A stretch of DNA of 20,533 nt from Candidatus Sulfobium sp. (lineage in GTDB: Bacteria; Nitrospirota; Thermodesulfovibrionia; Thermodesulfovibrionales; UBA6898): NCBI GenBank assembly GCA_037380845.1, contig JARRRI010000010.1, positions 1 through 20,533 of the forward strand. The letters are read 5' to 3'. Under the pieces are notes generated by a model. That model did no database searches, had not been told where the DNA came from, and saw only the letters and a list, made by a program, of their open reading frames with translations. Within the stretch, counting starts at the first letter, position 1; every line of letters starts with the position of its first letter. A program made the position numbers and the translations under genes. Shown here one piece after another: positions 2 to 20,533 of the stretch.

Positions 2-40
2 GAAAAAAATCACTGGCGAATCGAGAAGGAGGGGCAATAA
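2..40 (+). CDS. 3' end of a putative upstream gene (partial, ...EKNHWRIEKEGQ*)
   Basis: Frame 2 is open from the window edge to TAA at 38-40, which overlaps the cytochrome ATG (TAATG coupling). Too short to identify. Confidence 0.35.
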   Translation, partial: EKNHWRIEKEGQ

Positions 41-1942: not shown

Positions 1943-3084
1943 AGATTATGGTCTGCAGAAGAAGGTTTTTTCCGTTTGCTCTCACGGCAGTTATCATCGC
2001 TGTTGTGACCTGCTTCGCATACTCCGTCAATGCGCAGGCCCTGCTGCAGACAGGCAAGGAAGCGCCGGGGTTTACTCTTAAAGATCTTGAAGGCAACAGG
2101 ACCACGCTGTCGCAGTACGCGCAGAAAAAGGCGGTAGTTCTCCTCTTCTGGTCAACCTGGAGCGCGAACTCAAAGAAGGCGTTGAAGAGGTTCGAGGCAT
2201 TCCATCAGAAATACCCGGACAAAGAAATACAGATTCTCGGCATAAATGCCGACAACCAGACCATCTCCACCGAAGACGTCGAAAACATCCGAAAGACAGT
2301 GCAGGAAACAGGTATTACATTCCCCGTTTTGCTGGACAGAGGACTGGAAGCCTTTCACACATACGGTGTCATTGCCATACCTTCGACTATCGTGATAATG
2401 GAGGGCAGGATAGCCTACGAGCTTCCGGGCCTCCCCCTGGTGGGCACCGAAGACTTGTTCGATTATCTCCGGGAACTTGCAGGGGAGAAACCCCGCAGCA
2501 AGACAGAACCGAGGTACAGGCCGCGATATGACGCTATCGCCGACGCCAGCCTCGCAAAGGGGTTTGCAAAGGAGAAGATGAACGCAATGGCGTACCCTTT
2601 CTTCAAAAAGGCCATAGACAAAGACCCCAAATATATGCTCCCTTATGTAGGGCTCGCCAGGCTTTATGAGGCGGACGGAAATCCGAAGGCAGCCGAGGCC
2701 ACGCTCAGGAAGGCCCTCTCAATTGATGGCGGAAACGTGGTGGTTATGAGCGAACTCGGCTGTCTTCTCACGAAGACCGGGAAGACGCAGCAGGCGCTGG
2801 ACATACTCTCCAGTGCGGCAAAGAAGGATTCCTATACGCCCTCTCATTACTATTACGCCTATGCGCTCGGAAAGGCCGGAAAATTCACTGAGTCGCTTGC
2901 AGCCTTCGATAAGGCTCTGTCCCTCAACCCCTTCGAAGTAACGATATATCGTCTCCGGGCCGAGATTTACGAGGACAACAAGATGCTGAAGGAGGCGTCG
3001 GCGGACTACAGAAAGGCCCTGGAGCTCACTTTAAAGATAGACCCGGCAATCGTCAGGGGTCCGGCTCCCACCGGTCCCCGCTAG
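1939..3084 (+). CDS. TlpA/ResA-like redoxin domain + C-terminal TPR protein (CXXC replaced by SXXS)
   Basis: Signal peptide; GKEAPGFTLKDLEG...VVLLFWSTWSANS...TFPVLLD...YGVIAIPSTIVI thioredoxin-fold motifs; TPRs in the C-terminal half; ATGA overlap with the preceding gene. Confidence 0.88.
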   Translation: MKIMVCRRRFFPFALTAVIIAVVTCFAYSVNAQALLQTGKEAPGFTLKDLEGNRTTLSQYAQKKAVVLLFWSTWSANSKKALKRFEAFHQKYPDKEIQILGINADNQTISTEDVENIRKTVQETGITFPVLLDRGLEAFHTYGVIAIPSTIVIMEGRIAYELPGLPLVGTEDLFDYLRELAGEKPRSKTEPRYRPRYDAIADASLAKGFAKEKMNAMAYPFFKKAIDKDPKYMLPYVGLARLYEADGNPKAAEATLRKALSIDGGNVVVMSELGCLLTKTGKTQQALDILSSAAKKDSYTPSHYYYAYALGKAGKFTESLAAFDKALSLNPFEVTIYRLRAEIYEDNKMLKEASADYRKALELTLKIDPAIVRGPAPTGPR

Positions 3085-6000
3085 ACATCCTCCGTCTTCC
3101 GCTCCCTCATCCAGATGCCAACGCCTTTCCAGACGGCGTAAATCGCCGGCAACACGATGAGTGTAAGGATTGTCGCGGACACCATTCCGCCTATCATAGG
3201 CGCCGCGATCCTTCGCATTGTGTCGGCGCCGGCGCCCGCCCCCCAGAAAATCGGCAGAAGACCGGCCATGATGGCCGTCACGGTCATCATCAGCGGCCTG
3301 ACCCTCTCGCCCGCGCCGGTAACGATCGCGTCGTAAAGGTCCGCGTAGCTGATGACATTATTCTTTTCCTGCATCTTTCTGGCAAGCTCCTCATCGACGT
3401 AAATGAGCAGGACAACTCCCGTCTCAGCCGCAACTCCGGAAAGGGCGATGAAGCCCACACCGACCGCTATACTCATGTTGTATCCCAGAAGGTAAATGAA
3501 CCATACGCCTCCCACTATGGCGAAGGGCAAAGCCAGCATCACTATCACCGCCTCGGCCACGTTCTTGAAGTTCAGATATAGCAGAAGAAAAATAATGAGA
3601 AGGGTTATTGGCACCACGATCGCCAGCCTCTTGTTGGCCCTCTGCATGTATTCGTATTGTCCCGACCACTGGATGTTGTAGCCGGGCGGAATATGAACGT
3701 CTTTAGCAACGGCCTTCTGAGCGTTGTTTACATAGGTAGCAACATCCACACCCCGCAGATCTACATAGATCCAGACGCTCGGCCTCGAATTCTCGCTCTT
3801 GATCACTGCAGGCCCCTGATGGATCCTTATATGAGCCACCTGCGTTATGGGTATCTGGGTGCCCGTGGGGGTGGCTATGAGGACACGTTCCAGACTCGGT
3901 ATGGACTGCCTCAGCCCGCGCTGGTACCTGATATTTATGGGATATCTCTCAAGGCCCTCGACGGTCTCGCCCACGTTCATGCCGCCTATGGCAGACTGGA
4001 TCACATCCTCGACGTCCCCGACCGTCAAACCGTATCTGGCGGCAGCCTCCCTGTCTATGTCATAGTCGAAATAATAGCCCCCGACGACCCTTTCGGCATA
4101 GGCAGAAAGAGTACCCGGAACCTTGCTGACCGCCGCCTCGATTTCCTCTCCCAGCGTTGAGAGTGTATTAAGATCATTGCCCATTACCTTGATTCCTACC
4201 GGTGTCTTGATACCGGTTGCAAGCATGTCGATCCTGGTCTTGATAGGCATCGTCCAGGCATTCGTCACGCCTGGAATTTTAACGGCGTCATTCAACTCCT
4301 TGACCAGTTCCTTCTGGGTGATGGGCCGCTCGAGGGGCCATATCCTGGACAGAGGTCTTCGGAAAAATTCCGGCCAGCCGGAAAAGAACCTTTCCACCGG
4401 CACCTTTCTCCACTCGTCACGCGGCTTTAGTCTTATAGTCGTTTCGATCATCGACAGCGGAGCCGGATCGGTAGCGGTGTCGGCCCGGCCGATCTTACCA
4501 AAGACCGATTCTACCTCGGGGAAGCTCTTTATGATCTTGTCAGTCTGCTGAAGCAGTGCCCTGGCTGTCGTGATCGAGATGCCGGGCAGCGTAGTCGGCA
4601 TATAGAGAAGATCTCCTTCGTTAAGGGGCGGCATGAACTCTCCTCCCAGCTTTTCAAGGGGAAAGACCGCGTCTATCTTTTCTGCCACGGACTTCAGCGG
4701 ACCCTCCGGCAGCCTGTTGACCACCAGGGACCGGAAGGGCAGCAGAGTCAGTACTACCACGACGGCGCCGCCTATAGTTGCCGCTTTGTGCCTTAGCACC
4801 CACTGGATTGTGGGCCGGTATACACGGATAAGGAACCTGTTGACCGGGTTCTTCTCTTCAGGGCTGACCGCCTGAGGCCAGAGAACAAGGAAGACCACCG
4901 CGCCAAGGACTATCGCTATGAGCAGGCCGAAGCCTCCCAGAAGCGTCGTGGGAAAGAGAAGCGATACCGCCCGTACCAGCAGGAACACGCCGGCGCCCGC
5001 CAGGGCCGACACGATCCTCTGTTTCCTGAGGGACCAGGCCGCCGGAAGGAGGGTAGTCCTGATGAAATACCCCATGAGGACGGGAACGATAGTAACCGAA
5101 AGAAGCGCGGCCGAGGCCATGGAATACGTCTTCGTAAATGCCAGGGGCTTGAACAATCTCCCTTCCTGGGCCTGCAGGGAAAATATGGGGACGAAGGAAA
5201 ATGTGATTATAAGCAGAGAGAAAAAGAGCGCAGGCCCCACCTGCTTGGCCGAAAGGGTGATGACGGCCCAGTGCTCCTTCATACTGGGATTCTTCTCCAG
5301 GTGTTTATGGGCATTTTCTATCATGACTATCGCCGCGTCGATCATCGCTCCTATGGCGATGGCAATGCCCCCCAGAGACATGATATTGGCGTTCAGCCCC
5401 TGGAGGTGCATGACGATAAACGCCATGAGGATGCCCAGGGGCAGGGTAAATACGGCCACAAAGGTAGACTTGAAATGGAGGAGGAATATTATGCAGACCA
5501 GGGCCACGACTATGCACTCCTCCAGCAGTTTATGGTTGAGGGTATGCACGGCCCTTTCGATCAGGCCCGAGCGGTCGTAGACCGGCACTATCTTTACCCC
5601 CGGCGGCAGACCCGCCTTGAGGCTCTCCAGTTTCTCCTTGACGCGCTGGATCGTGGCCAGCGCGTTTTCGCCGTAGCGCATGACAACGACACCGCCGGCC
5701 ACTTCACCCTGGCCGTTCAGCTCCGCCAGTCCCCTGCGCATCTCCGGACCGAGATGTACGGTACCTACGTCCCGTATCAGGATCGGGGTGCCCGTCTTGT
5801 CCACCCCCAGAGGGATGTCCTCGATGTCCCTGATGGACTTGATGTAACCGAGGCCCCTCACCATATATTCCGTTTCCGCCATCTCGACAGTCCTGCCGCC
5901 CACGTCATTGTTTGAGCGCTGGATTGCGGACTTCACCTTGGAAAGCGGGATGTGATAGGCGAAAAGCTTGTTTGGGTCCAGCTCCACCTGATACTGCTTG

Positions 6001-6551
6001 ACGAACCCCCCGAGCGACGCCACCTCGGCGACTCCCTCCACAGAGGTAAGTTCATACCGGAGATACCAGTCCTGTATGGAGCGGAGCTGAGCCAGATTGT
6101 GCTGACCTGTCTTGTCCACCAGTGCATACTCATAAATCCAGCCTACCCCTGTGGCGTCGGGGCCGAGCGAGGGCGTAACCCCTTTTGGCAGACGGCCCGA
6201 CACATAGTTCAGATATTCGAGGACGCGGCTTCTCGCCCAGTAGAGGTCGGTCCCGTCCTTGAAAATAATGTAGACGAATGAAAGACCGAAAAAGGAATAG
6301 CCCCTCACCACCTTCGACCCAGGGACCGCGAGCATGGCTGTCGTAAGGGGATAGGTGACCTGCTGCTCCACCACCTCGGGTGCCTGGCCGGGGTACCTTG
6401 TAAACACGATCACCTGGACATCGGAGAGATCGGGAATTGCGTCCAGCGGCGTCTTGGAAAGAGCATATATACCCGCCGCCACAACGAAGAAGGTCGCAAG
6501 GATTACGATGAACCTGTTTTTAACGGAGTATTCGATTAACTTTTCGAGCAT
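3081..6551 (-). CDS. cusA: CusA/SilA heavy-metal RND efflux permease, Cu(I)/Ag(I) type
   Basis: DAIPDLSDVQV, GPDATGVGWIYEY and IDAAIVMIEN motifs; Cu(I)-binding Met triad conserved (LLYMPTT, PLSMIETT, RIDMLATG); TGATG overlap with cusB. Confidence 0.96.
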   Translation of the reverse strand: MLEKLIEYSVKNRFIVILATFFVVAAGIYALSKTPLDAIPDLSDVQVIVFTRYPGQAPEVVEQQVTYPLTTAMLAVPGSKVVRGYSFFGLSFVYIIFKDGTDLYWARSRVLEYLNYVSGRLPKGVTPSLGPDATGVGWIYEYALVDKTGQHNLAQLRSIQDWYLRYELTSVEGVAEVASLGGFVKQYQVELDPNKLFAYHIPLSKVKSAIQRSNNDVGGRTVEMAETEYMVRGLGYIKSIRDIEDIPLGVDKTGTPILIRDVGTVHLGPEMRRGLAELNGQGEVAGGVVVMRYGENALATIQRVKEKLESLKAGLPPGVKIVPVYDRSGLIERAVHTLNHKLLEECIVVALVCIIFLLHFKSTFVAVFTLPLGILMAFIVMHLQGLNANIMSLGGIAIAIGAMIDAAIVMIENAHKHLEKNPSMKEHWAVITLSAKQVGPALFFSLLIITFSFVPIFSLQAQEGRLFKPLAFTKTYSMASAALLSVTIVPVLMGYFIRTTLLPAAWSLRKQRIVSALAGAGVFLLVRAVSLLFPTTLLGGFGLLIAIVLGAVVFLVLWPQAVSPEEKNPVNRFLIRVYRPTIQWVLRHKAATIGGAVVVVLTLLPFRSLVVNRLPEGPLKSVAEKIDAVFPLEKLGGEFMPPLNEGDLLYMPTTLPGISITTARALLQQTDKIIKSFPEVESVFGKIGRADTATDPAPLSMIETTIRLKPRDEWRKVPVERFFSGWPEFFRRPLSRIWPLERPITQKELVKELNDAVKIPGVTNAWTMPIKTRIDMLATGIKTPVGIKVMGNDLNTLSTLGEEIEAAVSKVPGTLSAYAERVVGGYYFDYDIDREAAARYGLTVGDVEDVIQSAIGGMNVGETVEGLERYPINIRYQRGLRQSIPSLERVLIATPTGTQIPITQVAHIRIHQGPAVIKSENSRPSVWIYVDLRGVDVATYVNNAQKAVAKDVHIPPGYNIQWSGQYEYMQRANKRLAIVVPITLLIIFLLLYLNFKNVAEAVIVMLALPFAIVGGVWFIYLLGYNMSIAVGVGFIALSGVAAETGVVLLIYVDEELARKMQEKNNVISYADLYDAIVTGAGERVRPLMMTVTAIMAGLLPIFWGAGAGADTMRRIAAPMIGGMVSATILTLIVLPAIYAVWKGVGIWMRERKTEDV

Positions 6552-8335
6552 CAGTACTTGATCTCATTCCCGCAAACCAGCATATCTTTGTCGAGGAAGG
6601 GGTTCTGAACGGAAGAGCCCGTTTGAAGCCACGACTCTTTCTTCATGGGACAATAGAATATCTTGACGCCCTGGGCGTGGGCCTCCTGTCTTCCCGGGCC
6701 TTGCACGTACTTGACCATGGCACGGCTCAGCACAGCGAAGGAAGCCTTGGCCTCTCCGATTTCGCCCGAAAGCAGACCCGGAAGGACCTGATCTACAGTT
6801 TCCACCACATCTTTCACCGAGCCCTCCGTATTTTGAGCCTTGAGTTTTTTTGCGGCATCGGCCAGGGACTCTGCGTATGTCTTCACACCGGCCGGAGATT
6901 CAGCAACCAGAGCACCGTGGATTTTCATGTATGCGTCTGTTACTTCGGACATTATCTGTTTCTGATCTTCCGGCGTTCGCGCCTGGGGGGCTTCTTTCCC
7001 GGTCTCTTTCATTTCGCCCGGTGTGGCCTTCGGCGCTTCCTTCTTCCCGGAAGCTTTTCTGGCCTCTACCATCTTGTTTAATGCCTCCTTGAGGTTGCTC
7101 TCGGAGTCAATGAGGAACTGCGCCGATGTAACAACCTTCTCCCCTTTGGTGAGCCCTGATTTTATCTCCACCACCCCCTGGCCTTCGGCCCCGAGGACCA
7201 CGTCCCTGGGCATGAACTTGCCGCCTCCCAGAGCTATGATGACGATATTCTTGGTGCCTGTCCGTATGACCGCATTGTCAGGCACCTGAAGGACGTTTTC
7301 ACCCACCTTCGTCGTTATTGCCACGTTCACATACATATCGGGCTTCAGCCTGAAACCGGGGTTCTTGAAGTCCATCCTTATCTGGACGGTCCTGGTAGCC
7401 GCCTGCAGGTAGGGATAAATAAACGAAACGCGGCCCTTGTAGACGACCCCCGGCTCATAGGGAAGCGTAATCTCGGCCTCCTGGCCGGTGCGGATAAACG
7501 GCAGTTCATATTCGTAGATGGAGCCCATCACCCAGATGTTCGAAATATCGGCGATGGTATATAGCTCCATCCCCGGGGTGACCTTCATCCCGGCGAGCAC
7601 CTTCTTGTCGATTACGATTCCGTGGGTCGGAGACCTCAGGATCATGGCCTTCTGGATCGTACCGCGCTTTTCGAGGGCCTCTATCTGAGCCGGATCGATA
7701 TCCATGTACAGGAGCCTCCGGCGCGTTGCATCAACAAGCGCCTTTCCCCCGCTCGCTACATCACTGAAGGCGGATGTACTGGTCTGCGTCTCATATCTCA
7801 GGGCCTGGAGGTATTCCTGCTGGGTGGCAACCAGTTCAGGCGAATATATGGAGAGGCGCTCCTCTCCCCTGGATACCTCTTGTCCGGTGGTGTTTACGAA
7901 GAGGTCTTCCACCCACCCCGATACCTTCGTGTGAATGTGCTGGACCAGTTTCTCATTGTAAGTCACCTGCCCCACAGTGCGCACAGTGGCAATGAGCGGA
8001 CCCTGCCTGACCTCCGTAGTCTTTACGCCTATGTCCTGGACCGTTACGGGGTCGATCTTCACAACACCTTCTTCTTCATTTTCTCCCTCATAAACAGGCA
8101 CAAGGTCCATCCCCATGGGAGACTTGCCCGGTTTGCTGCTTATATAGTTAGGGTTCATCGGGGCAACCCAGTATTTGATCTTTCTCTTCTTCTTTGTCTT
8201 GCCCTCCACGGCTTCCTTCTTAGCCGTGGTAACAGGCGTATCCTTCTTCTTCCCGCCGGGGGACATGAGCCATATCACCGCGATCAGAAGAACAAGAATT
8301 ATCGAGATATATTTAACTGTCTTCTTCTTGCTCAT
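6551..8335 (-). CDS. cusB: CusB-type RND periplasmic adaptor with N-terminal Met-rich metal-binding domain and C-terminal DUF3347-like domain
   Basis: TM anchor; YWVAPMNP...PGKSPMGMDLVPVY; MFP core (SIYSPELVATQQEYL, TRTVQIR, LKPDMYV, AQFLIDSESNL); extra C-terminal helical domain ending FYCPMKKESWLQ...NPF...MLVCG. Confidence 0.93.
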   Translation of the reverse strand: MSKKKTVKYISIILVLLIAVIWLMSPGGKKKDTPVTTAKKEAVEGKTKKKRKIKYWVAPMNPNYISSKPGKSPMGMDLVPVYEGENEEEGVVKIDPVTVQDIGVKTTEVRQGPLIATVRTVGQVTYNEKLVQHIHTKVSGWVEDLFVNTTGQEVSRGEERLSIYSPELVATQQEYLQALRYETQTSTSAFSDVASGGKALVDATRRRLLYMDIDPAQIEALEKRGTIQKAMILRSPTHGIVIDKKVLAGMKVTPGMELYTIADISNIWVMGSIYEYELPFIRTGQEAEITLPYEPGVVYKGRVSFIYPYLQAATRTVQIRMDFKNPGFRLKPDMYVNVAITTKVGENVLQVPDNAVIRTGTKNIVIIALGGGKFMPRDVVLGAEGQGVVEIKSGLTKGEKVVTSAQFLIDSESNLKEALNKMVEARKASGKKEAPKATPGEMKETGKEAPQARTPEDQKQIMSEVTDAYMKIHGALVAESPAGVKTYAESLADAAKKLKAQNTEGSVKDVVETVDQVLPGLLSGEIGEAKASFAVLSRAMVKYVQGPGRQEAHAQGVKIFYCPMKKESWLQTGSSVQNPFLDKDMLVCGNEIKY

Positions 8336-8374
8336 GTTTTTTTCCTCTGGTTATGGTTTGTGCTGCCGGGGTCA

Positions 8375-9694
8375 TTATTCAATGTAAAGTCTCTTCCCCA
8401 CACTCGCTTCAATCTCCGATATCGTGTTTTCGTAATCAGTCACCGCCTGGTAGTATTCGATTTCATAGTTGTACAAGGTAACCTGGTTGTTCACCAGGGT
8501 TATGAAATCAACCTTGTTCACCTGGTATCCCGAGATCGCCGATTCAAGGGCGGCCCTGCTCTGTGGCAAAAGCCCGGTCTGGAAAAGTTCGATCTGTCTC
8601 CGGTATTTCCCGATACGTGCCAGCGCATCCTTTATCATGAAAAAAATCCCATTCTTTGCCGCATTATACTGCTCCATCGCCTGCCGGATGTTCCACTTCT
8701 CTTCGGCCACTTTCTTGTCTTCCTTGGTCTTGTACCAGAGAGGCACAGTGACCATGACGACACCGGAAACGAAGTCCGGTCTCTCGTCACGCTGCCCGTA
8801 GCTGACCCCGAAGTCGAAATCGGGATAATAATTCTTCTCCGCCAGTCTCAGGGCCAGTCTGTACCTCTCGATCCGCTGTTTAGCACCGATAAGGACAGGC
8901 CTGTTGACCTCCGCGATCTTCTGAAGTTCGTCACCGGTAAATGCAAAGTCCGGATGCCTCAGACCGTCCATTTCGATACCCTCCATCTCTTCTAAGGGTG
9001 ACTTGACGGGCCGGTAAAGAAGAGTGTTCAAACGGGCGACCGCGGTCTCTTTATTCTGCCGCAGGACTATCAGCTTATCTATCATTTTGGAGAGTTCCAC
9101 CTGGGCCTTCAACACATCCTGCTGAATGCCCTCACCAACCGCGTACTTAGTCTCCGTGGTCTTCACAAATTCCCGCAGGAGGTCCCTGTTTTCTTTCGTG
9201 ATATCAATGGTCTTATTGATCAAAAGCAGGTTCCGGAACGCGTCCTCTACCCCCCTGACCAGATCATTCCTTTTTTCCACGTAATCTTCGGTGACTATCT
9301 CTGTTTCTTTTCTGGCAATGTCCCCTTTAAGCGGAAGTTTACCCGGAAAGGGGACCTTCTGGAAAATCGAGATCTGCTTCTGGGTCATCGGCTCCTGGTT
9401 GAAGCTGAAGCTGTTCGTAGGAACGGCGAGGAGAGAAAATCCTATCCTCGGGTTGTCGAGCGATTCTGCCTGGGAAGGCCGCTGGCTGAAGGCTTCTTCC
9501 CTGTCCTTCAGGGACTTCAGCTCGGGGTTGTTTGCAAGGGCCTCATCTATCAGCCTTTCCAGAACGGCTTCTCCCCTGTCTGTTGTCCCCTCAGCGGACG
9601 ATACGAGAGGCAGCAGCATCAGCAGGGAAGCCGCAACTACCACGGCACAGAGTCCTTTTAAAGAGACGGCTACACTCAATTTTTCCCTTAGCAT
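8375..9694 (-). CDS. cusC: TolC/CusC-family outer membrane efflux protein
   Basis: Signal peptide; ALANNPEL, QKVPFPGKL, QQDVLKAQVELS and YYPDFDFG OEP motifs; directly upstream of cusB. Start at 9694 has a purine-rich SD; 9733 is an alternative. Confidence 0.9.
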   Translation of the reverse strand: MLREKLSVAVSLKGLCAVVVAASLLMLLPLVSSAEGTTDRGEAVLERLIDEALANNPELKSLKDREEAFSQRPSQAESLDNPRIGFSLLAVPTNSFSFNQEPMTQKQISIFQKVPFPGKLPLKGDIARKETEIVTEDYVEKRNDLVRGVEDAFRNLLLINKTIDITKENRDLLREFVKTTETKYAVGEGIQQDVLKAQVELSKMIDKLIVLRQNKETAVARLNTLLYRPVKSPLEEMEGIEMDGLRHPDFAFTGDELQKIAEVNRPVLIGAKQRIERYRLALRLAEKNYYPDFDFGVSYGQRDERPDFVSGVVMVTVPLWYKTKEDKKVAEEKWNIRQAMEQYNAAKNGIFFMIKDALARIGKYRRQIELFQTGLLPQSRAALESAISGYQVNKVDFITLVNNQVTLYNYEIEYYQAVTDYENTISEIEASVGKRLYIE

Positions 9695-9764
9695 CCTGTT
9701 CCCCTGTAGGTCATATTTTCCAAATTTTATCACACCCGAGTAAGTTTATGAATTGAGAAGACAG

Positions 9765-10995: not shown

Positions 10996-12039
10996 TCAGG
11001 CCGGCTGGACAGCCGGGGCGCTTACGGCCCACACAAAGAAGTGAGGTCCTTTCTTCTGTCCGACTCCCGTGGCGCCTTTTGTGAGATACAAAGCCCATGC
11101 CCAGTCTGACTCGAACATGCTGGTGGTCGAAGACCAGTAGGATTCCCGGACACTCTCAAACGGATGTCCGGGGGGCAATGCCGGACTATGTGCATCGCAG
11201 TCCACAAGAGATTCCAGCTCGTTGATATTGGGCAACCGCCATCGGTCTCTTCTCTTCGAGCCCTGGTTAAGCCGCTCCACTGCTTCGAGCGCATCACTCC
11301 AGGTAACCGGGCCGCCTGCCAGGTCTGCGCACCTCTTCCAGCAGAGCACCGTCAGTCGATCAATAACCACTTCATCGCGGACTTCAAAGCGGGGTTCAGG
11401 CAATGGCAGGCCGAAACGGAACGCGCCGTCCTGTCCCGTACCTTCGCATGGAATGCATTGTCCGCCCGGGTCGTAACAAAGTGTCTGCCCCGTCGATGCA
11501 AGAATTCCGTTTCCTTCGCCTCTAACCGGCCAAAGCAGGCTAAACTGTTCCTTCCTTCCGTAAAACATCCGTGCGCCTTCCATATGGACATACCACGCGT
11601 ACGCCGGATTAATCGCTGCCGTAGTGGAAGTCCAATACCAGCCGAGGAAGACATCGGCAAAGGGATGTCCTTCAGGAAGCGCCGGTTTTCTGGTCTGATA
11701 ACTCACGAGACTTCGCAGCTCCCGGCGGTTGGGAAGCCGCCAGTCAGAATGGCCGAATGCTTTTCTTCTGTTCATGTCCGCTATATAATCCAGCGCCTCC
11801 TGCCATCTCAGCGCAAATTCGGCGAGGTTGGCGTTCCGTGTCCACCCCAGTCCGGTGAGGCGGTCGAAAACAACGTCCTCGTGTTGCTCGAATCTGGGCA
11901 CGGGCCACACCGCTCCGCTTCTGAATTCCGCATCCTGCCCGCTGCCCGCGCAGGGCACCTCGCGGCCGGCTGTGTCGTGGCAGGTCGTCTGGCCTGTCCG
12001 GACATAACACATTGTAGTTTTCGGATCACGGTTCTCCAT
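10996..12039 (-). CDS. Tandem DUF1566 (Lcl C-terminal domain) protein
   Basis: Two repeats of TGQTxCxD...G[ST]GQD...PRF...V.DRLTxLxW...WRLPNxxELxSLV...YW[TS]STT...AW. Confidence 0.88.
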   Translation of the reverse strand: MENRDPKTTMCYVRTGQTTCHDTAGREVPCAGSGQDAEFRSGAVWPVPRFEQHEDVVFDRLTGLGWTRNANLAEFALRWQEALDYIADMNRRKAFGHSDWRLPNRRELRSLVSYQTRKPALPEGHPFADVFLGWYWTSTTAAINPAYAWYVHMEGARMFYGRKEQFSLLWPVRGEGNGILASTGQTLCYDPGGQCIPCEGTGQDGAFRFGLPLPEPRFEVRDEVVIDRLTVLCWKRCADLAGGPVTWSDALEAVERLNQGSKRRDRWRLPNINELESLVDCDAHSPALPPGHPFESVRESYWSSTTSMFESDWAWALYLTKGATGVGQKKGPHFFVWAVSAPAVQPA

Positions 12040-12187: not shown

Positions 12188-14599
12188 ATGAAAGTTACCG
12201 ATCCGGTCTGCCACATGACGATCGAAGACAAGGAGGCCGCCGGAACTTCTACCTACAAGGGTAACACTTACTATTTCTGCTCGAAACCCTGCAAGGAGAA
12301 GTTCGACGAAGACCCCGGGTCTTACCTTGAAGAAAAGGCTGAAGCCGAGAAAACGGCCGCGACCGGAAAAGGAGTTGACCACACCTGCCCCATGCATCCC
12401 GAAATCAGGCAGCCCAAACCCGGTCCCTGTCCGAAATGCGGCATGGCACTGGAGCCGGTTGAACCTGCCGCCCCAATAACCAAAACGGAATGGACCTGTC
12501 CGATGCATCCGGAAATCGTCAGAGACAAGCCCGGGAGCTGCCCGAAGTGCGGCATGGCGCTGGAACCGAAAACAGTGACTGCTGAAGAAGAGGAAAACCC
12601 CGAACTCATCGATATGACCAGGCGGTTCAAGGTCAGCGTCGTCCTCACTGTCCCCGTCTTTCTGATTGCGATGAGGGACTTTATTCCAGGGCTTTCTTTT
12701 CTTCTCTCAGGGGTCCCGCCCTCATTTCTTACCTGGGCGGAACTTGTCCTAACCACCCCCGTCGTCCTCTGGTGCGCCTGGCCCTTCTTTGTCCGGGGGT
12801 GGCAGTCTGTAGTCACCTGGAATCCCAACATGTTCACATTAATCGGCCTGGGCACGGCCGTCGCCTACGTTTACAGCCTTATAGCCGCACTTTTCCCGGG
12901 GTTGTTCCCGGCATCTTTCCGGACCGAAGGCGGGCAGGTAAGCGTATATTTTGAGGCAGCGGCAGTGATTACCACGCTCGTTCTCCTCGGCCAGGTGCTT
13001 GAGCTCAGGGCCAGGAGCAAAACGGGTGCGGCGATAAGGGCTCTTCTCGGTCTGGCCCCCAAAACCGCCCGTCGTATAACTGACGGTAAAGAAGAAGACG
13101 TTCCGCTCGAACAGGTCCTGTCGGGCGACCTCCTGCGCGTGAGGCCCGGGGAGAAGGTACCTGTGGACGGGACGGTTGTGGAGGGATCCAGCTCGATGGA
13201 TGAGTCCATGATAACGGGGGAGCCGATCCCCGTTGAGAAGAAGGAAGGTGACCGGGTAATCGGGGCAACCATAAACGGTACGGGCACGCTGGTCATGAAG
13301 GCCGAAAAGGTCGGTTCAGAGACCCTTCTTGCCCAGATTGTACATATGGTGGCAGAGGCACAGAGGAGCCGTGCGCCGATCCAAAAGCTCGCGGACGTTG
13401 TTGCGGGCTACTTCGTTCAGATCGTGGTAGGGATCGCCGTCATCACCTTTTTCGTCTGGCTGTGGGTGGGACCGGAACCGAAATTTACCGTCGCCCTGAT
13501 TAACGCAGTCGCGGTGCTCATGATTGCGTGTCCATGCGCCATGGGGTTGGCAACACCCATGTCGATTATGGTCGCAGCCGGGAAGGGAGCATCCGCCGGC
13601 GTTCTTTTCAAAAATGCTGAAGCCATAGAAGTGATGAAGACAGTCGACACACTTGTGACCGACAAGACCGGCACTCTCACGGAAGGCAAACCCAGACTTG
13701 TCGAAGTCGTTCCCGCCGGCGGATTCGATGAGAAGGCCGTCCTTCACTTTGCATCCAGCATCGAAGTCGGGAGTGAGCACCCTCTGGCTGCGGCCATAGT
13801 CAAAGGTGCGAAGGAAAAAAATGTGGCAGCCTCTAAGGCCGAATCGTTTGAGTCGCTTACAGGACGCGGGGTAACAGGTCTGGTCGATGGGAAGAAGGTC
13901 GGCCTGGGCAACCTCTTGATGCTTGAGGAGTTCAAAATCGACCCCGGGGACCTTTCCGCAAAGGCTGAGGACATGCGACGTGACGGTCAGACTGTCATGT
14001 TTGTAGCTGTGGACGGTAAGACGGCCGGTCTTCTGGGTGTTGCCGATCCGATAAAGGCGACAACATCAAGAGCCATTAAAGCGCTCCACGAGGAAGGAAT
14101 GCGGATAGTCATGTTAACAGGTGACAGCAAGACGACGGCGGAGGCGGTCTCAAGGAAACTGGACATCGACGAAGTGATAGCCGAAGTATTGCCCGACCAG
14201 AAGGCCGATATAGTCAAACGCCTTCAGGCCGAGGGTAGAATAGTTGCAATGGCCGGAGACGGGATTAACGACGCCCCTGCCCTTGCCCAGGCGCAGGTGG
14301 GCATAGCAATGGGAACGGGTACCGACGTGGCCATGGAAAGCGCGGGAGTAACGCTGGTTAAGGGTGATCTGCGGGGCATCGTCCGCGCAAGAAAGCTGAG
14401 CATGGCCACAATGCGGAACATCAAACAGAACCTTTTCTGGGCCTTCGGCTACAACTCGGTGGGAGTGCCGATTGCGGCCGGTGTCCTGTATCCATTTTTC
14501 GGCATCCTGCTCAGCCCCATGATCGCTGCAGCAGCAATGAGTTTCAGTTCTGTGTCGGTTGTGGGTAATGCACTGAGACTCAGAAGGGTTCATCTCTGA
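12188..14599 (+). CDS. copA: Cu(I)-translocating P1B-type ATPase with N-terminal YHS domain and two CPMHP heavy-metal-binding domains
   Basis: YHS (DPVCHM...YYFCSKPC); two TCPMHPEI...[10 protein letters not shown] repeats; [30 protein letters not shown]; Cu(I)-type YN and MSFSS motifs in the last TM helices. Confidence 0.97.
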
Positions 14600-14966: not shown

Positions 14967-16421
14967 ATGAAAAACGACGACCGCAAGCCAACCACAACAG
15001 ATGCCGGGATTCCCGTATCCAGCGACGAGTACTCGCTGACCGTGGGACCCGATGGACCCATCCTTCTGCAGGACCACTATCTCATCGAACAGATGGCCAA
15101 CTTCAATCGGGAGCGGATTCCGGAGCGGCAGCCCCATGCGAAAGGTTCCGGGGCCTTCGGACACTTCGAGGTAACCAAGGATGTCAGCTCTTACACAAAG
15201 GCTGCGGTATTCCAGTCCGACGTCAAGACAGACACACTGATCCGGTTTTCCACTGTGGCCGGTGAGCGCGGCAGCCCTGACACTTGGCGTGACCCGCGCG
15301 GCTTCGCGCTGAAGTTTTACACGAGTGAGGGCAACTACGATATGGTGGGGAACAATACACCGGTGTTCTTCGTGCGCGATCCGATGAAGTTCCAGCACTT
15401 CATCCGCTCCCAGAAGCGCCGTGCGGACAACGGCCTGCGCGACCACGACATGCAGTGGGACTTCTGGACACTATCGCCGGAGTCGGCCCACCAGGTCACG
15501 TGGCTGATGGGTGACCGGGGGATCCCGAAAACCTGGCGGCACATGAACGGCTATTCGAGCCATACTTACATGTGGGTCAATGCGAAGGGCGAGCGCTTCT
15601 GGGTAAAGTACCATTTCAAAACCGACCAGGGCATCGACTTCCTCACACAGGAAGAGGCCGACCGGCTGGCCGGCGTCGACTCGGACTACCATCGCCGTGA
15701 CCTGTTCGAGGCGATCAAGCGGGGTGACTACCCCAGCTGGACGCTGAAGATGCAGATCATGCCCTTCAAAGATGCCGAGACATACCGGTTCAACCCCTTC
15801 GACCTGACGAAGGTGTGGCCGCACAGCGACTACCCGCTCCACGAGGTCGGCCGGCTGACGCTGGACCGCAACCCGACCGATTTTCATACCGAGATCGAGC
15901 AGGCGGCATTCGAACCGAACAACCTCGTTCCGGGAATCGGTCCCAGTCCGGACAAGATGTTGCTCGCCCGCCTCTTCTCCTATGCCGACGCACACCGCGC
16001 CCGGCTCGGAGTTAACTACAAGCAGATCCCGGTCAACAGGCCGAAAGTACCGGTGCACAGCTACAGCAAGGACGGCGTGATGCGGGTCCAGAACGTCTCC
16101 GACCCCGTGTACGCGCCCAATTCAAAGGGCGGCGCGCAGGCCGACGGCAAGCACTACCCTCAGGTGGAGGTCTGGAAGGCGAGCGGCGGGTTTATCCACG
16201 CTGCCTATACGCTGCACAGGGATGACGACGACTTTGGCCAGGCCGGCACCCTGGTGCGCAAGGTCATGGACGATGCTCAGCGCGGCCGCCTGGTGTCTAA
16301 CGTTGTCGGTCACCTTAAAAAAGCCGTGTCTGAGCCCGTGTTGCAGCGTGCGTTCGAATACTGGAGAAACATCGACGGGGAGATCGGCGACCGCATCGCC
16401 AAAGGCGTGAAAGGCGGCTGA
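14967..16421 (+). CDS. katA: Monofunctional small-subunit heme catalase
   Basis: [15 protein letters not shown] (distal His), [11 protein letters not shown] (Asn), RLFSYADAH (proximal Tyr); SD AAGGAGGT. Confidence 0.97.
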
Positions 16422-16455
16422 CTCGACAACAATACGTGCGCGAAGCTCCTGTGAT

Positions 16456-16584
16456 TGAACCGCTGAGCGCGGGGTTCGACGCAGACACCAGTCGGGCGTT
16501 ACGCATGAATCCTGAAGTGCGCCTCGGCCCGTCAGCTGGGGCGCACTTGCCGCAGACTCCCTGCTTAAATCCGCGAGTGGTTCA
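16456..16584. mobile_element. Candidate 129-bp MITE with IS3-like TG...CA termini
   Basis: Ends TGAACCGCT(GAG)CGCGG and CCGCGAGTGGTTCA are inverted repeats; flanked by a GAT direct repeat (16453-16455, 16585-16587); internal hairpins. Confidence 0.5.
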
Positions 16585-16838
16585 GATTTCGGTAATATGA
16601 ATCCGTCTTCCGCTCCGGACGGCATTAAGAAACATTAATAAAAGTTCACTTCTTTTTAATCTCAGCTTAATCAAACCGTTTTAAAATCTTCCTCATATAC
16701 TGCGGACTTTTCGACTTCTCGATGGGTAAGAGGAAGGAGGTGAAAATATAATTCGCAGTCTGCCGGCGGCCGGCAAAATCAACCGTCCGGGCCCGAACAA
16801 TTAAAAAGTCGCTTTCACAATACACAGTGAGATAAGGC

Positions 16839-16860
16839 AGGGCTCAGGTTGGGCCTTATT
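16839..16860 (+). terminator. Possible intrinsic terminator hairpin
   Basis: AGGGCTCA-GGT-TGGGCCTT stem-loop followed by an AT-rich tail; the U-tract is weak. Confidence 0.3.
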
Positions 16861-16945
16861 AATCTGAAAGCTTTAAAGGACATGCGAGCGATTCCGGAAC
16901 AAAAATAACCTGCCTGGAGGTTCTCGCATTTGGAGATCTTTAATT

Positions 16946-17077
16946 ATGGAATATAAAACGTACGAGATAGACCAGTACGGAAGGCTTAGAATTTATCCCT
17001 CTTTGACTCCCACAAGAGCAAAAGGGTTCTGGAGGAAAATCTCCTCCAGGATATTGAAAGCATTGAGGGTATCCTGA
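16946..17077 (+). CDS. Hypothetical small protein, 43 aa (MEYKTYEIDQYGRLRIYPSLTPTRAKGFWRKISSRILKALRVS)
   Basis: ATG preceded by GGAG and an AT-rich spacer; basic amphipathic C-terminus; no recognised family. Confidence 0.4.
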   Translation: MEYKTYEIDQYGRLRIYPSLTPTRAKGFWRKISSRILKALRVS

Positions 17078-17592
17078 ACACTGTACTTTAAACGGTCAGT
17101 CACTGCGCTTATACATCGCCGGAACGATCCAGGAACCCGTTTCTTGCTGCCGAAAGTTATTATTGCCGTCGAAAGTTCTGTCCCGCCATTTGCGACAGTC
17201 CCTAGCAGGTCCTTTGATATCGCCTGTCCCTATAGTCGCGGCGCCGATATTTCTTAGGGATGTCCGGGGTAAAGTCCTGAAGGCCGGGGTGGTCAGCCGA
17301 CGAGAACCTGAAGTATTATTCTGAACATGTGAAATCGGTATGGATCTCTGTCTGGAGATGCTCAGGAGAGCCATGAAGAGGAGCAGCGCCGCTCTTTGCC
17401 ATATTGATCTGCGTCAGGAAGATGCAACCATTATGAAATCCATACCATTTTGAAGGACAGGATATCCCCGTTGATGAACTCGAAATCGAGATAAGAAAAG
17501 AGGTATGGTTTCGACGCCAATAAGCAGGATAGTCCCACCCGATAAGGTTTACCTCGCAGTTGAGAAAAGATTAACTATTATTCACTGCCCGC

Positions 17593-17621
17593 TTGCCGGA
17601 AAGAGAGAAATGTGAGAACAT
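17593..17621 (+). promoter_or_regulatory. Putative promoter TTGCCG-N17-GAACAT, paralogous to the copA promoter
   Basis: Shares CTGCC..TTGCC..GAAAG...AATGTGAGAACAT with the copA upstream region (12106-12141). Confidence 0.55.
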
Positions 17622-17710
17622 GGAAGTACTCGAATAGACCAGATATGCGCAACGGCCGATAGTTGCGACAAATTATCAAACCGCTTATATCCGCCGGAAA
17701 GGAGAGCGAG

Positions 17711-17869
17711 ATGAAGGTTAAAGACCCGGTCTGTAACATGACTATCGAGGAAAGCGAAGCCGCGGGCAATTCCACTTACAAGGGCGACACTTATTATTTC
17801 TGCTCGAAGGGATGCCAGGAGACCTTTGACAAAAACCCCGAGGCTTTTGTGGCAAAGAAAGGCTCGTAA
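17711..17869 (+). CDS. Standalone YHS-domain protein (52 aa), putative copper chaperone
   Basis: MKVKDPVCNM...YKGDTYYFCSKGCQETFDKNPE; SD AGGAG before ATG at 17711. Confidence 0.9.
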   Translation: MKVKDPVCNMTIEESEAAGNSTYKGDTYYFCSKGCQETFDKNPEAFVAKKGS

Positions 17870-17957
17870 GGTTAAGGTCACCCGCCGGTGTCCGGCAAAT
17901 CGCTGCAGTTCCCTCTTTCTTCCATCTGTTTTGTCGGCCGGAGCATGAGCGTGAGGC

Positions 17958-18617
17958 ATGGCTATTACGAAGAAGCAGATAGTCGATCTCTACCGCCTGA
18001 GGTCGCGCCGTTATGAAGTCACCGCAAACCTGTATTACCTGATAGGCTTCAGAGAACAGTCATACCGGAACAAGGCGGTGAGGGCTCTCAATCTCAGTCC
18101 CGGCGATACGGTCGTTGAGATAGGCTGCGGAACAGGGCTTAACTTCACCCTCTTGCAGAGTGCCGTCGGGCCCGGCGGGAGGATCATAGGAGTTGACCTG
18201 ACGGATTCCATGCTGGATCAGGCCCGTAACAGGATAAAGAAAGAGTCATGGTCCAACGTGGAACTGGTGCAGGGCGATGCTGCCTCCTACGTTTTTCCCC
18301 GCGGCATTGACGGCATTATTTCGACCTTCGCGCTCACTCTTGTCCCTGAGTTTGATACTGTCATCCGGAACGGGTGCGAAGCCCTGAAGGAGAGAAAACG
18401 CTGGGTGGTCCTGGACTTCAAGATGCCCGCACCACCTTTTTCTTCTCTTGCCCCTCTCTTCCTTTATCTCACGAAGCCCTTCGGAGTAAGCCTGGACCTG
18501 GCAAGCCGTCATCCGTGGGAGTCCATACACAGATATCTCCGGCACCCGTCCATGATTGAGCATTATATGGGCTTCGTATACATTGCTACCGGGGAAAAAG
18601 GAGGGAGTGGATGCTGA
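17958..18617 (+). CDS. Class I SAM-dependent methyltransferase
   Basis: VVEIGCGTG motif I, IIGVDLTDSML, VELVQGDA, DGIISTFAL. Confidence 0.9.
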   Translation: MAITKKQIVDLYRLRSRRYEVTANLYYLIGFREQSYRNKAVRALNLSPGDTVVEIGCGTGLNFTLLQSAVGPGGRIIGVDLTDSMLDQARNRIKKESWSNVELVQGDAASYVFPRGIDGIISTFALTLVPEFDTVIRNGCEALKERKRWVVLDFKMPAPPFSSLAPLFLYLTKPFGVSLDLASRHPWESIHRYLRHPSMIEHYMGFVYIATGEKGGSGC

Positions 18618-18632
18618 CCGGCTGGAGGTAGC

Positions 18633-19004
18633 ATGGTCCTCATGCCCTTGTTGATGTTTCTCCCCCTGCTGGCCTTGCCGATATTCTGGCTATTGCCGCT
18701 GGCTGAGGCTCTGCCGATTTACCTGTGTCTCGTCGCCCTCTCTGCGGCGATGATGTGGGTCATGCGGAAAACAATGAAGATGCCCTCAAGAACAGGGGCG
18801 GAATATCTGGTCGGCAGAGAGGCGAAGGTGGTTTCCAGATCGGGACCTGGATACGGGACGCAGTACCAGGTCCGAGTTGACGGAGAGTTGTGGTCCGCCA
18901 GAAGCAGCGATGCTCTGGCACCCGGTGACAGCGTAACAGTCGCAGAGATCAAGAGCAACGTCCTTATCGTGGAACGCAAATCTAAATCTCACTCGCACGA
19001 TTAA
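18633..19004 (+). CDS. Short NfeD-like membrane protein (C-terminal OB-fold, YbbJ type)
   Basis: Two N-terminal TM segments, then TGAEYLVGREAKV...VRVDGELWSARS...GDSVTV...VLIV; SD GGAGG. Confidence 0.87.
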   Translation: MVLMPLLMFLPLLALPIFWLLPLAEALPIYLCLVALSAAMMWVMRKTMKMPSRTGAEYLVGREAKVVSRSGPGYGTQYQVRVDGELWSARSSDALAPGDSVTVAEIKSNVLIVERKSKSHSHD

Positions 19005-19179
19005 CTGATCGCTCACACTGCGGTTAGGTTTGTTCCATCTGAGCCGTACTGGCCGATCATCGGCATGGTCGACATGCTGCCCTTCGTGCGGAACGGACAG
19101 GGGACGGTGAGGGCTGCCGGCAGTCCCGCCTTCACAAAATGCAGATACTGTGCTAGCCTAAAGTCAGGACAAAAAGACC

Positions 19180-19482
19180 ATGAAGACGGTTACAGCGATC
19201 GTAAGGACAGACAGTCTCGAAGAAATAGTGAAATCCCTGGAGGAAAAGGGCATCAGGGGCATGACAATTACCGAAATCATGGGCGTCGGGCAGGAAGTCC
19301 GCCTGTACAAGCCTTACACTATCCACAACAGGATCGAGATCATCGTGCCTGACGAAAAAGTGGACGAGGTCACAGGGGCCATCCTCCAGCACGGACAGAC
19401 AGGATTTGCCGGCGACGGCCTTATCGGGGTCTATCCCATGGACTATATGATAAAGATAAGGACGGGCGAAAAGAAGACGTGA
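19180..19482 (+). CDS. PII-family signalling protein with shortened T-loop
   Basis: MKxVxAIVR...GIRGMTITEIxGxG...IEIIVPDEKVDEV...TGxxGDGxI...IRTGE; 100 aa versus 112 for GlnB/GlnK. Confidence 0.9.
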   Translation: MKTVTAIVRTDSLEEIVKSLEEKGIRGMTITEIMGVGQEVRLYKPYTIHNRIEIIVPDEKVDEVTGAILQHGQTGFAGDGLIGVYPMDYMIKIRTGEKKT

Positions 19483-19501
19483 TGGCCGCCAAAGCTGTCT
19501 G

Positions 19502-20533
19502 ATGAAAAGAGACCCGGTCTGCAACATGGAGGTGCGGGAAGAAGACGCCGTCACCGCAGAGTGTGACGGCGAGATCTTCTATTTCTGTTCCGAAGGCTGC
19601 AGAGACAAGTTTCTTGAGGAGAGGACCTGCAAAGTGCCTCGCAGGTCCTACGATCTCATAATACTGGGCGCAGGACCTGCGGGACTTACAGCGGGCGTTT
19701 ACGCCGCAACTCTGCGTGTCGATGCCTTCCTCATAGGGAAAGACCTTGGTGGCCAGGCTGTCGACAGCACGAAGATCGAAAATTATATGGGTTATGACTT
19801 TATCACGGGCCCGGAACTCGTCGAAAAATTCCAGTATCAGCTGATCAATTCCCACTATATCGACCACTTGATTGGTGAGGTGGAAAGGGTCGAGGCCGTC
19901 AAAGGCGGCTTCAACGTGACGACGGCGGAACTGGTTAGCTACTTTGCGAGGACCGTCATTATCGCAACCGGCATGAACAGAAGGAAACTCGGAGTACCGG
20001 GAGAGGAGGCTTTTCAGCGGAGGGGAGTATTCTACGGGAACATCCAGGATTTTTCCTTCGTCAGTGAAGCGCCGGTCGCAGTTATCGGGGGAGGGAACTC
20101 CGCGCTCCAGATGGTGGAAAACCTTCAAGGAGTTGCAGGGGACATCCATCTGGTTTCAAGGGGGGAACTCACAGCCGACCCGGTAATCATTGAACGGGTA
20201 AAGTGTTTCGAGAACCTTCACATTTACGAAGGCTACAAAGTACTGGAGTTGACCGGCGACAGTTTGCTTTCAAAAATAACGATACGTAAGACAGGCACTG
20301 AAGGGAGCGAAAAGATTCCTGTGAGGGGCGTTTTTATATCGATCGGCCTGCAGCCGAATACCTTTCCGGTCTCACACCTCGTCGACTCCAACGAGCGCGG
20401 CGAGATCCTTATCGGTCCGGATTGCAGCACCTCCCGTCCGGGACTTTTCGCGGCGGGAGACGTCACAAACGCCTTCGGGAAAAGGATTATCATCGCTTCG
20501 GGCGAAGGCGCGAAGGCAGCTCTTGCTGCGAGG
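19502..20533 (+). CDS. YHS domain fused to a thioredoxin-reductase/AhpF-like FAD oxidoreductase lacking CXXC (3' partial)
   Basis: Manual translation is open to the window end: MKRDPVCNM...FYFCSEGCRDKF (YHS), YDLIILGAGPAGLTAGVYA, GGQ...IENYMG, IIATG, RGVFYGNIQD, VAVIGGGNSA, GLFAAGDVT, ASGEGAKAA. Confidence 0.92.
   Translation, partial: MKRDPVCNMEVREEDAVTAECDGEIFYFCSEGCRDKFLEERTCKVPRRSYDLIILGAGPAGLTAGVYAATLRVDAFLIGKDLGGQAVDSTKIENYMGYDFITGPELVEKFQYQLINSHYIDHLIGEVERVEAVKGGFNVTTAELVSYFARTVIIATGMNRRKLGVPGEEAFQRRGVFYGNIQDFSFVSEAPVAVIGGGNSALQMVENLQGVAGDIHLVSRGELTADPVIIERVKCFENLHIYEGYKVLELTGDSLLSKITIRKTGTEGSEKIPVRGVFISIGLQPNTFPVSHLVDSNERGEILIGPDCSTSRPGLFAAGDVTNAFGKRIIIASGEGAKAALAAR

Follow-up and report, generated by a model that had tools for sequence, protein, structure and literature searches.

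The stretch of DNA analysed here (the window) comprises positions 1-20,533 of contig JARRRI010000010.1 from Candidatus Sulfobium sp. (Nitrospirota; assembly GCA_037380845.1). At its 3′ end lies a gene for a fusion protein, in which a small YHS/TRASH head is joined to a core with the fold of thioredoxin reductase (TrxR) that lacks the redox-active CxxC of that enzyme. The coding sequence is still open where the window ends, and the contig goes on past that point, with the first 45 nucleotides beyond the window read as N. Since relatives span 345-386 amino acids (best 120 of 7,979 matches), about 10-15 C-terminal residues of the fusion would fall outside the window. Being open at its 3′ end, the gene was missed by the open reading frame (ORF) track, an omission pointed out in the original prediction for this DNA; it shows only if open-ended ORFs are allowed. 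The features of the gene are as follows (FAD, flavin adenine dinucleotide; pLDDT, predicted local distance difference test).

19502..20533, forward strand: YHS-TrxR-like fusion gene, ATG start, 344 amino acids visible, open at the 3′ end, which lies outside the window
19511..19621, forward strand: YHS/TRASH metal-binding head, residues 4-40 (Pfam PF04945, 34.3 bits, cut-off 30.3)
19511, 19520, 19586 and 19598, forward strand: codons of the putative head ligands D4, C7, C29 and C33, respectively
19622..19648, forward strand: linker between head and FAD domain, residues 41-49 (AlphaFold2 pLDDT 66)
19664..19681, forward strand: FAD-binding GxGxxG motif, GAGPAG, residues 55-60, with G56, G58 and P59 invariant
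20024..20050, forward strand: former redox-active site GVFYGNIQD, residues 175-183, in place of GVxxCxxCD
20087..20104, forward strand: NAD(P)H-binding motif GGGNSA, residues 196-201, with G196-S200 invariant
20156..20164, forward strand: end of the NAD(P)H-domain beta-2 strand, S219-R220-G221, family consensus S-D-T
20450..20461, forward strand: second FAD motif AAGD, residues 317-320

The core was matched by the Pfam model Pyr_redox_2 over residues 50-325 (100.3 bits). The motifs that had been named for it, namely GAGPAG, ATG (residues 155-157), GGGNSA, AAGD and a GVFYGNIQD free of Cys and TGA, were all found where the original prediction had placed them. In the HMMER alignment, GVFYGNIQD falls column for column on GVTYCPHCD of AhpF (1hyu, E 1.7e-47), with the catalytic Cys pair replaced by G179 and Q182 and the following Asp kept. 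The replaced stretch GNIQ is encoded by GGG AAC ATC CAG at nucleotides 20036-20047, containing neither a Cys codon nor TGA; with no in-frame TGA, a selenoprotein reading was ruled out. The Cys residues of the visible protein are located at positions 7, 21, 29, 33 and 43, plus 235 and 308 in the core.

Close relatives were retrieved from a collection of 5.8 billion proteins (7,979 matches), among which the best 120 were compared; they are 68-100% identical to the fusion over 98-100% of the query, and 118 of them carry a precomputed YHS call. The combined YHS and Pyr_redox_2 architecture, a search for which had been proposed as a check, recurs together with a Cys-less site in all 120 listed relatives. 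A regular expression located the site in 116 of them (GNIQ in 110, GSIQ in two and GNIH, GNIE, GNVQ and GNLQ in one each), with the other four escaping the pattern, and column conservation in a MAFFT alignment of the 120 was 100% for G179, 98% each for N180, I181 and Q182, and 99% for D183. Cys was found at either of the former CxxC columns in none of the 120. If the protein were a decayed allele, close homologs would keep CXXC, and these relatives do not; the decayed-allele idea was ruled out by the 98-100% conservation of the replaced site.

Two canonical TrxRs are encoded elsewhere in the genome (385 and 358 bits, cut-off 343), both with a CATC site, while in the same search the fusion scored 236.6 bits; a housekeeping TrxR identity was thereby ruled out. 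Because the replaced site is conserved and ordinary TrxRs are present elsewhere, the fusion represents an additional, selected paralogue. In databases its members are named ‘alkyl hydroperoxide reductase subunit F', ‘thioredoxin-disulfide reductase' or ‘NADH dehydrogenase', in the protein atlas only generic TrxR or FAD-oxidoreductase cluster names occur, and the clusters of the deeper fused representatives and of their sister group (see below) are either blank or called ‘AhpF' or ‘thioredoxin reductase'. As disulfide reduction by the TrxR mechanism is impossible without CxxC, these automatic names are wrong. Judged by its sequence, the fusion is best placed in a separate subfamily of the TrxR fold that has no name as yet, with a length of about 355 amino acids.

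The head matches the YHS/TRASH pattern D/C-x2-C ... C-x3-C. Asp plus three Cys form the ligand set of YHS/TRASH domains (described in the accessible part of PMC4626032), and by analogy D4, C7, C29 and C33 are the predicted metal ligands of the fusion. These four residues never vary in a 46-row alignment reaching down to fused lineages of 40-49% identity, and are present in 116-120 of the 120 listed relatives, the four misses being gene calls that start at an internal Met. The original prediction had counted five Cys in the head and linker; all five exist in this copy, but only C7, C29 and C33 are family-wide. C21 and C43 are kept at 95-96% in the main clade and lost in most deep fused lineages, with C43 (96% in the main clade) absent from five of the six deep representatives.

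The HRR motif (of the HRRxxxR type) confers NADPH specificity in TrxR, and by the general rule for Rossmann folds an acidic residue at the end of the beta-2 strand gives a preference for NADH. SRG was correctly reported at the HRR position of this copy, yet it is peculiar to it, as the family reads S-D-T: position 220 is acidic in 67 of the 120 listed relatives and basic in four. From these residues the family leans to NADH, as does AhpF, rather than NADPH, and the present copy, with its Arg, may differ.

A structural model of the fusion was built by AlphaFold2 on the 46-row alignment (mean pLDDT 85.9; predicted template modelling score 0.71), with pLDDT of 81-87 in the head, 66 in the linker and below 50 in a conserved loop at residues 90-99. 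Foldseek matched the model to TrxR structures with template modelling (TM) scores of 0.77-0.84. Among the two conformational states of TrxR, the model is nearest to the flavin-reducing (FR) state (5mh4: TM 0.80, root mean square deviation (rmsd) 3.6; 1f6m: TM 0.78), and its fit to the flavin-oxidizing (FO) state is poorer (5mjk: TM 0.60, rmsd 7.1). In the FR state NAD(P)H is turned towards the flavin, and in a protein modelled this way the loop of the former CxxC would point outward. The FR-like model, representing one conformation, is weakly indicative of an enzyme that would no longer need the FO/FR swing. Docking of the head (residues 1-45) on the core (residues 46-344) with FAD gave scores of 0.48, 0.54 and 0.45, against 0.52 for an unrelated-partner control.

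The ancestry of the Cys-less site was traced in a deeper search of 1.84 billion representatives clustered at 50% identity, which returned 20,764 matches, the best 150 of which were aligned; 130 full-length rows, selected by score, entered a FastTree phylogeny with Shimodaira-Hasegawa-like (SH-like) supports only. Among the 130 rows, 104 have CxxC without a head, 14 are Cys-less without a head and 12 are Cys-less with a head, and the combination of TRASH with CxxC occurred in none. The 12 fused rows form one split (SH-like support 95). Within the 150 aligned sequences, the full-length TRASH-bearing rows read GNVQD (twice), SHSAVQD, AYRLVHE, LEYHDLL, SFSVVQD and LEFHALL at the site, and a head is missing from the closest rows with CxxC (up to 46% identity). 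Seven CxxC-bearing relatives near the base of this half of the tree (P0135, P0146, P0147, P0148, P0230, P0238 and P0202) were seen to carry N-terminal extensions of about 70-115 amino acids.

The sister of the fused proteins (support 80) consists of six unfused, Cys-less proteins with a YSAVSY/H site. A metagenome scan for this clade used generic patterns, and five of its 80 loci hold true Cys-less sister members. In four of these five, a malic enzyme gene ends 10-151 nucleotides upstream of the sister gene on the same strand, and none of the four has copper genes beside the sister gene; the fifth locus (L093) provides only 0.8 kb of upstream sequence. The four pairs are located as follows.

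L090:3598-5903: sister gene with malic enzyme gene
L091:3597-5903: sister gene with malic enzyme gene
L092:3617-5930: sister gene with malic enzyme gene
L094:3665-5897: sister gene with malic enzyme gene

Because the unfused sister is already Cys-less, the loss of CxxC probably predates the gain of the head. A one-step replacement of CxxC by the head is therefore unlikely, and an NAD(P)H-linked activity independent of a disulfide was very likely present in the core by then. A Cys-less sister without a head therefore weakens the idea of head thiols taking over from CxxC.

The fusion gene shares the window with a set of transport and YHS genes, listed here from the fusion outwards (SAM, S-adenosylmethionine; RND, resistance-nodulation-division).

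19180..19482, forward strand: P-II family protein, 19 nucleotides upstream of the fusion gene (Pfam P-II, 63 bits)
18633-19004, forward strand: NfeD-like protein, between the free YHS gene and the P-II gene, with short gaps
17958-18617, forward strand: SAM methyltransferase, likewise between the free YHS gene and the P-II gene, with short gaps
17663..17869, forward strand: free small YHS protein, 68 amino acids (Pfam YHS, 55.8 bits)
12188..14599, forward strand: P1B-1 Cu(I)/Ag(I) ATPase with an N-terminal YHS domain, two HMBD domains and the motifs CPC448, YN755 and MSFSS784
10996-12039, reverse strand: Lcl_C-domain protein
3081..9733, reverse strand: CusCBA-type RND system, comprising a CusA/CzcA-family pump, a CusB-like adaptor with HMBD and an outer-membrane factor
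1939-3084, forward strand: AhpC/TSA-TPR fusion, about 16 kb from the fusion gene

The P-II gene is probably co-transcribed with the fusion. The ATPase of the window passes the copper-ATPase model TIGR01511 (596.7 bits, cut-off 397) and carries, in place of HMA domains, HMBD domains (PF19335) with repeated C-P-M-H-P-E ... C-P-K-C-G-M motifs; pumps of the P1B-1 type carry Cu(I)/Ag(I) (PMC7558416 Table 4). The N-terminal YHS domain of the pump (12188-12340, forward strand) is a near-copy of the free YHS protein, whose true start is likely the internal Met before KVKDPVC; by analogy, this similarity suggests a chaperone/pump pair like that formed by the HMA domains of CopZ and CopA. A catalase gene is found upstream of the free YHS gene, and the 1.24 kb between the two (16422-17662) holds no ORF with a Pfam match. 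No mer genes were seen in the window, and predicted promoter and terminator sites in 16300-20533 were no more frequent than in shuffled sequences.

Other observations in and next to the window include a multihaem cytochrome c (40-1389, forward strand) with seven paired CXXCH motifs and an MtrC-like domain; an N-terminal HMBD on the CusB-like adaptor (6551-8335, reverse strand) together with a C-terminal extension (residues 456-589) matching the LIC13259/LIC11441 family; and a Met/Gly-rich secreted protein of 235 amino acids that follows the fusion gene just past the window (L001:2683-3390). Contig sequence was present in 13 public DNA runs (marsh and salt-marsh metagenomes), with no RNA run listed.

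The linkage to copper genes was surveyed at 80 genome loci of relatives. The hosts belong to Nitrospirota/Thermodesulfovibrionia, Thermodesulfobacteriota, Gammaproteobacteria, Spirochaetota, Bipolaricaulota, WOR-3 and Stahlbacteria. A P1B ATPase match of at least 250 amino acids was found in 47 of the 80 loci (including L068, whose ATPase, at just 24% identity, could be a different P-type pump); of these 47 ATPases, 43 are encoded on the same strand as the fusion and 17 within 1 kb of it. Where the flanks reach at least 5 kb on either side (32 loci), a P1B ATPase lies within 6 kb in 27. The linkage to copper genes, whose absence had been named as grounds for rejecting a copper role, is therefore strong. 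Additional YHS domains occur in 49 of the 80 loci, being located on the N-terminus of the pump in 27 of the 47 loci with an ATPase and in free small YHS frames in 14 loci; owing to truncated contigs, these YHS counts are lower bounds. The other neighbours in the window are not conserved (P-II in 9 of 80 loci, methyltransferase in 4, CusA in 3 and CusB in 3); AhpC-like genes occur in 2 of the 80 loci, and NfeD and catalase in 0 of 80 each.

Neighbours were also clustered de novo (up to four genes on each side, 70% coverage required) in 73 loci; left out were L007, L018, L028, L045, L050, L077 and L080, in which the target gene was not recovered by the ORF caller. The recurrent neighbours are the ATPase (25 of 73), a membrane methyltransferase of the PEMT/ICMT type (13), YHS-histidine kinases (10), DUF5676 (9), Met-rich (9) and SHOCT (9) proteins, P-II (5), Lcl_C (4), DUF302 (4), CsoR (3) and YHS-phosphorylase-like proteins (3). 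ArsM-like methyltransferases, as well as those of the PEMT/ICMT type, recur near the family. Among these neighbours, the kinases have YHS fused to HisKA/HATPase modules directly beside the flavoprotein gene (L012:2368-3240 and nine other loci) and are probably cytoplasmic copper-sensing kinases. The phosphorylase-like protein, of about 640 amino acids, resembles carbohydrate phosphorylases and is also fused to YHS (L025:1734-3656 and two other loci). The Met-rich proteins are small, secreted and extremely rich in Met (for example, L076:8011-8448 and L067:7988-8569). Matches to the Lcl_C protein (for example, L069:5312-6370) were obtained by tblastn in 5 of the 80 loci, and in four loci it is encoded by the next gene downstream of the flavoprotein.

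The conserved features point to an NAD(P)H-oxidizing flavoprotein that is unable to use the dithiol mechanism of TrxR, bears a copper-type ligand set on a short tether and is passed on jointly with genes for Cu(I) export. The explanation that we tentatively favour is that the fusion acts as an NAD(P)H-driven flavin reductase of the metal on its tethered head, converting Cu(II) to Cu(I) and feeding a YHS-based export route. In such an enzyme, NAD(P)H would reduce the FAD, the donor being NADH by the family consensus, with Arg at the specificity position of this copy. Having no CxxC relay, the flavin would give single electrons straight to the head-bound metal, most likely reducing Cu(II) to Cu(I), and the head would then pass Cu(I) to the free 68-residue YHS protein and to the YHS head of the P1B-1 pump for export. 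We infer the identity of the metal, the direction of electron flow and the hand-off. More doubtful is the full version of this scheme, a dedicated cytoplasmic NADH:Cu(II) reductase-chaperone that would deliver Cu(I) by like-to-like exchange to a YHS chaperone and a YHS pump. Parts of the scheme are known from other proteins, of which the present one would be a flavin-driven counterpart: within the flavoprotein disulfide reductase superfamily, RclA reduces Cu(II) at the expense of NADH (PMC7527725), a metal head is tethered to MerA (PMC7527725), and the Archaeoglobus CopZ-FeS fusion reduces Cu(II) (PMC7558416).

Several points weigh against a Cu(II) reductase. RclA and MerA use a flavin-adjacent Cys, of which there is none here, and direct flavin-to-metal transfer is assumed in its place. 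Most hosts are anaerobes, whose cytoplasm should hold its copper as Cu(I) in any case, and Cu(II) is converted by cytosolic reductants with no enzyme involved (PMC7558416); it is thus not evident why a Cu(II) reductase would be needed. The GNIQD site is not kept in the deeper fused lineages (SHSAVQD, AYRLVHE, LEYHDLL and SFSVVQD), and the Cys-less, headless sister is found beside malic enzyme, not copper genes, which implies some other, non-metal acceptor in the ancestry of the core. The one YHS-enzyme fusion known to have been tested uses YHS as an allosteric copper switch (PMC4626032), and a sensor module would also fit the YHS-histidine kinases (10 of 73 loci) and YHS-phosphorylase-like proteins (3 of 73) of the same islands.

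Ranked as the main rival is a copper-switched flavoenzyme, in which the YHS head would be an allosteric copper sensor that turns an NAD(P)H flavin oxidoreductase on or off; its acceptor could be, for example, a ferredoxin, a rubredoxin, a flavodoxin-type protein, a quinone or O2, and the enzyme would supply reducing power or repair capacity in copper stress. This explanation, which we regard as somewhat unlikely, draws on the adenylyl cyclase of Mycobacterium phlei, whose YHS domain is a copper-specific activator with the same Asp plus three Cys and an 8-residue linker (PMC4626032), and on the YHS-bearing kinases and phosphorylase-like proteins at the 10 and 3 of 73 loci. Ferredoxin reductases of the TrxR fold (found among the matches in the Protein Data Bank (PDB)) work without CxxC, and the headless Cys-less sister, with malic enzyme in four of five loci, argues for a prior activity independent of the metal head; however, that sister relationship has an SH-like support of only 80 in a FastTree phylogeny of score-selected rows. 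A mere switch is also at odds with the new and strongly conserved FYGNIQD of the main clade, which differs from the YSAVSY of the sister and thus speaks for a changed catalytic site, not just regulation. Nor is an acceptor gene conserved beside the family, the neighbours being pumps, YHS proteins, the membrane methyltransferase, DUF5676 and Met-rich proteins.

It is improbable that the fusion is instead a thiol keeper, with an AhpF-like design of a tethered acceptor operating without a CxxC relay. Here the flavin would reduce a C29-x3-C33 disulfide in the head, and exchange would keep the Cys of the free YHS protein and of the pump YHS domain metal-competent. AhpF is indeed the best sequence match among solved structures, its tethered acceptor meets the core where the head does (query residues 46-49 versus AhpF residues 209-212) and the C-x3-C pair is invariant. 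To our knowledge, however, in all low-Mr TrxR and AhpF enzymes the flavin reduces a disulfide only via the adjacent CxxC, which is absent here although needed for this transfer; the Cys triad is kept in non-redox YHS domains as well, and metal binding alone explains its conservation. The catalase and AhpC/TSA-TPR genes within the same window would suit a thiol keeper, but catalase is found in none of the 80 related loci and AhpC-like genes in two.

The substrate could also be a different soft metal or metalloid that the island handles, such as Hg(II), Ag(I), Au(III) or Fe(III), an alternative to which we likewise attach little likelihood. A metal head on a flavoprotein follows a MerA-like logic, Ag(I) is among the ions exported by P1B-1 pumps (PMC7558416 Table 4), Hg(II) stimulates RclA as well (PMC7527725), and the ArsM-like and PEMT/ICMT-type methyltransferases recur nearby. 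Against this, the linked transport genes bear copper/silver signatures, the CsoR-type regulators and Met-rich proteins point to copper, and mer genes were not seen in the window. Finally, a decayed or inactive TrxR/AhpF paralogue (a pseudoenzyme), kept by chance beside copper genes, would account for the scores below the curated TrxR and AhpF cut-offs and for the missing catalytic Cys, but it is highly improbable and effectively refuted by the invariant cofactor motifs, the 98-100% conserved replaced site in 120 relatives at about 70% identity, and the architecture and gene context kept in seven or more phylum-level groups.

The means by which bacteria set the redox state of copper in the cytoplasm ahead of its export are understood only in part. 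In the accessible part of a review, the bacterial cupric reductases are just CcoG plus unspecific activities such as that of NDH-2 (PMC7558416), and RclA was added as a cupric reductase in 2020 (PMC7527725). No description of a YHS/TRASH-TrxR-like fusion was found in a search of full-text literature, in which subscription journals were not covered. The family is widespread (at least seven phylum-level groups) and misleadingly annotated, with Cu(I) pumps as consistent neighbours of its genes. It would be new either way, as a flavin metal reductase with a tethered TRASH head or as a copper-gated flavoenzyme, and either outcome would clarify the role of the many YHS domains in copper islands. Should the reductase-chaperone hold true, it would complete a YHS-based route of copper trafficking, parallel to the HMA-based one (CopZ/CopA), in many anaerobic phyla, and would add a new catalytic route to metal reduction by enzymes of the TrxR fold.

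Among known systems, AhpF shares with the fusion the two-domain FAD/NAD(P)H core, an N-terminal acceptor attached at the same junction (1hyu, E 1.7e-47) and the acidic NADH-type residue at the end of beta-2, which is the consensus of the fusion family. Unlike AhpF, the fusion scores 223 bits against a cut-off of 502.9 (TIGR03140), has no CxxC in its core and carries before the FAD domain only 45-49 residues, matching YHS, where AhpF has a double thioredoxin fold with CxxC; moreover, no ahpC adjoins it, the nearest AhpC/TSA gene being about 16 kb off. With low-Mr TrxR (TrxB, TIGR01292) it has in common the fold, the GxGxxG, GGGxxA and GD motifs and the Asp after the former CxxC, yet it scores 235.9 bits against a cut-off of 343.45, reads GNIQ for CxxC and has no HRR-type motif.

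Ferredoxin-NADP+ reductases of the TrxR type (YumC/Chlorobaculum) likewise do without CxxC in a TrxR fold, their flavin donating single electrons to an acceptor with a metal centre; they characteristically bear a C-terminal extension with an aromatic residue stacking on the flavin. They differ from the fusion in having neither a head nor a copper context, and they match it at about E 1e-20 or weaker versus 1e-47 to 1e-40 for AhpF and TrxR. MerA with its NmerA domain resembles the fusion in placing a small, Cys-based metal head N-terminally on an NAD(P)H/FAD reductase within a metal-resistance island. MerA belongs to class I (high-Mr), having CxxxxC beside the flavin, a Cys pair at the C-terminus, a dimerization domain and an HMA head; the core of the fusion is class II, with no Cys in residues 44-234 and thus none near the flavin, no Pfam match to Pyr_redox_dim, a YHS head and a score of 47 bits against 454 for the MerA model.

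The closest demonstrated function is that of RclA from E. coli, a cytoplasmic flavoprotein that reduces Cu(II) to Cu(I) with NADH (PMC7527725); unlike the fusion, RclA is a MerA homologue with CxxxxC and no separate head, and is regulated by chlorine stress rather than linked to a pump. A. fulgidus CopZ likewise combines a copper-chaperone domain with a redox-cofactor domain, Cu(II) being reduced before hand-off to the P1B pump, and NDH-2, a Pyr_redox_2 flavoprotein, reduces Cu(II) in an unspecific manner (PMC7558416 and its Table 2, respectively). CopZ-FeS, CcoG and NDH-2 differ from the fusion in relying on Fe-S clusters or quinols, and none has a TrxR-type core or a YHS head. The adenylyl cyclase of M. 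phlei, the only YHS-enzyme fusion known to have been tested biochemically, carries its YHS domain C-terminally, as an allosteric activator with no redox chemistry; it shares with the present fusion the Asp plus three Cys and the short linker, and its response is specific to copper (PMC4626032).

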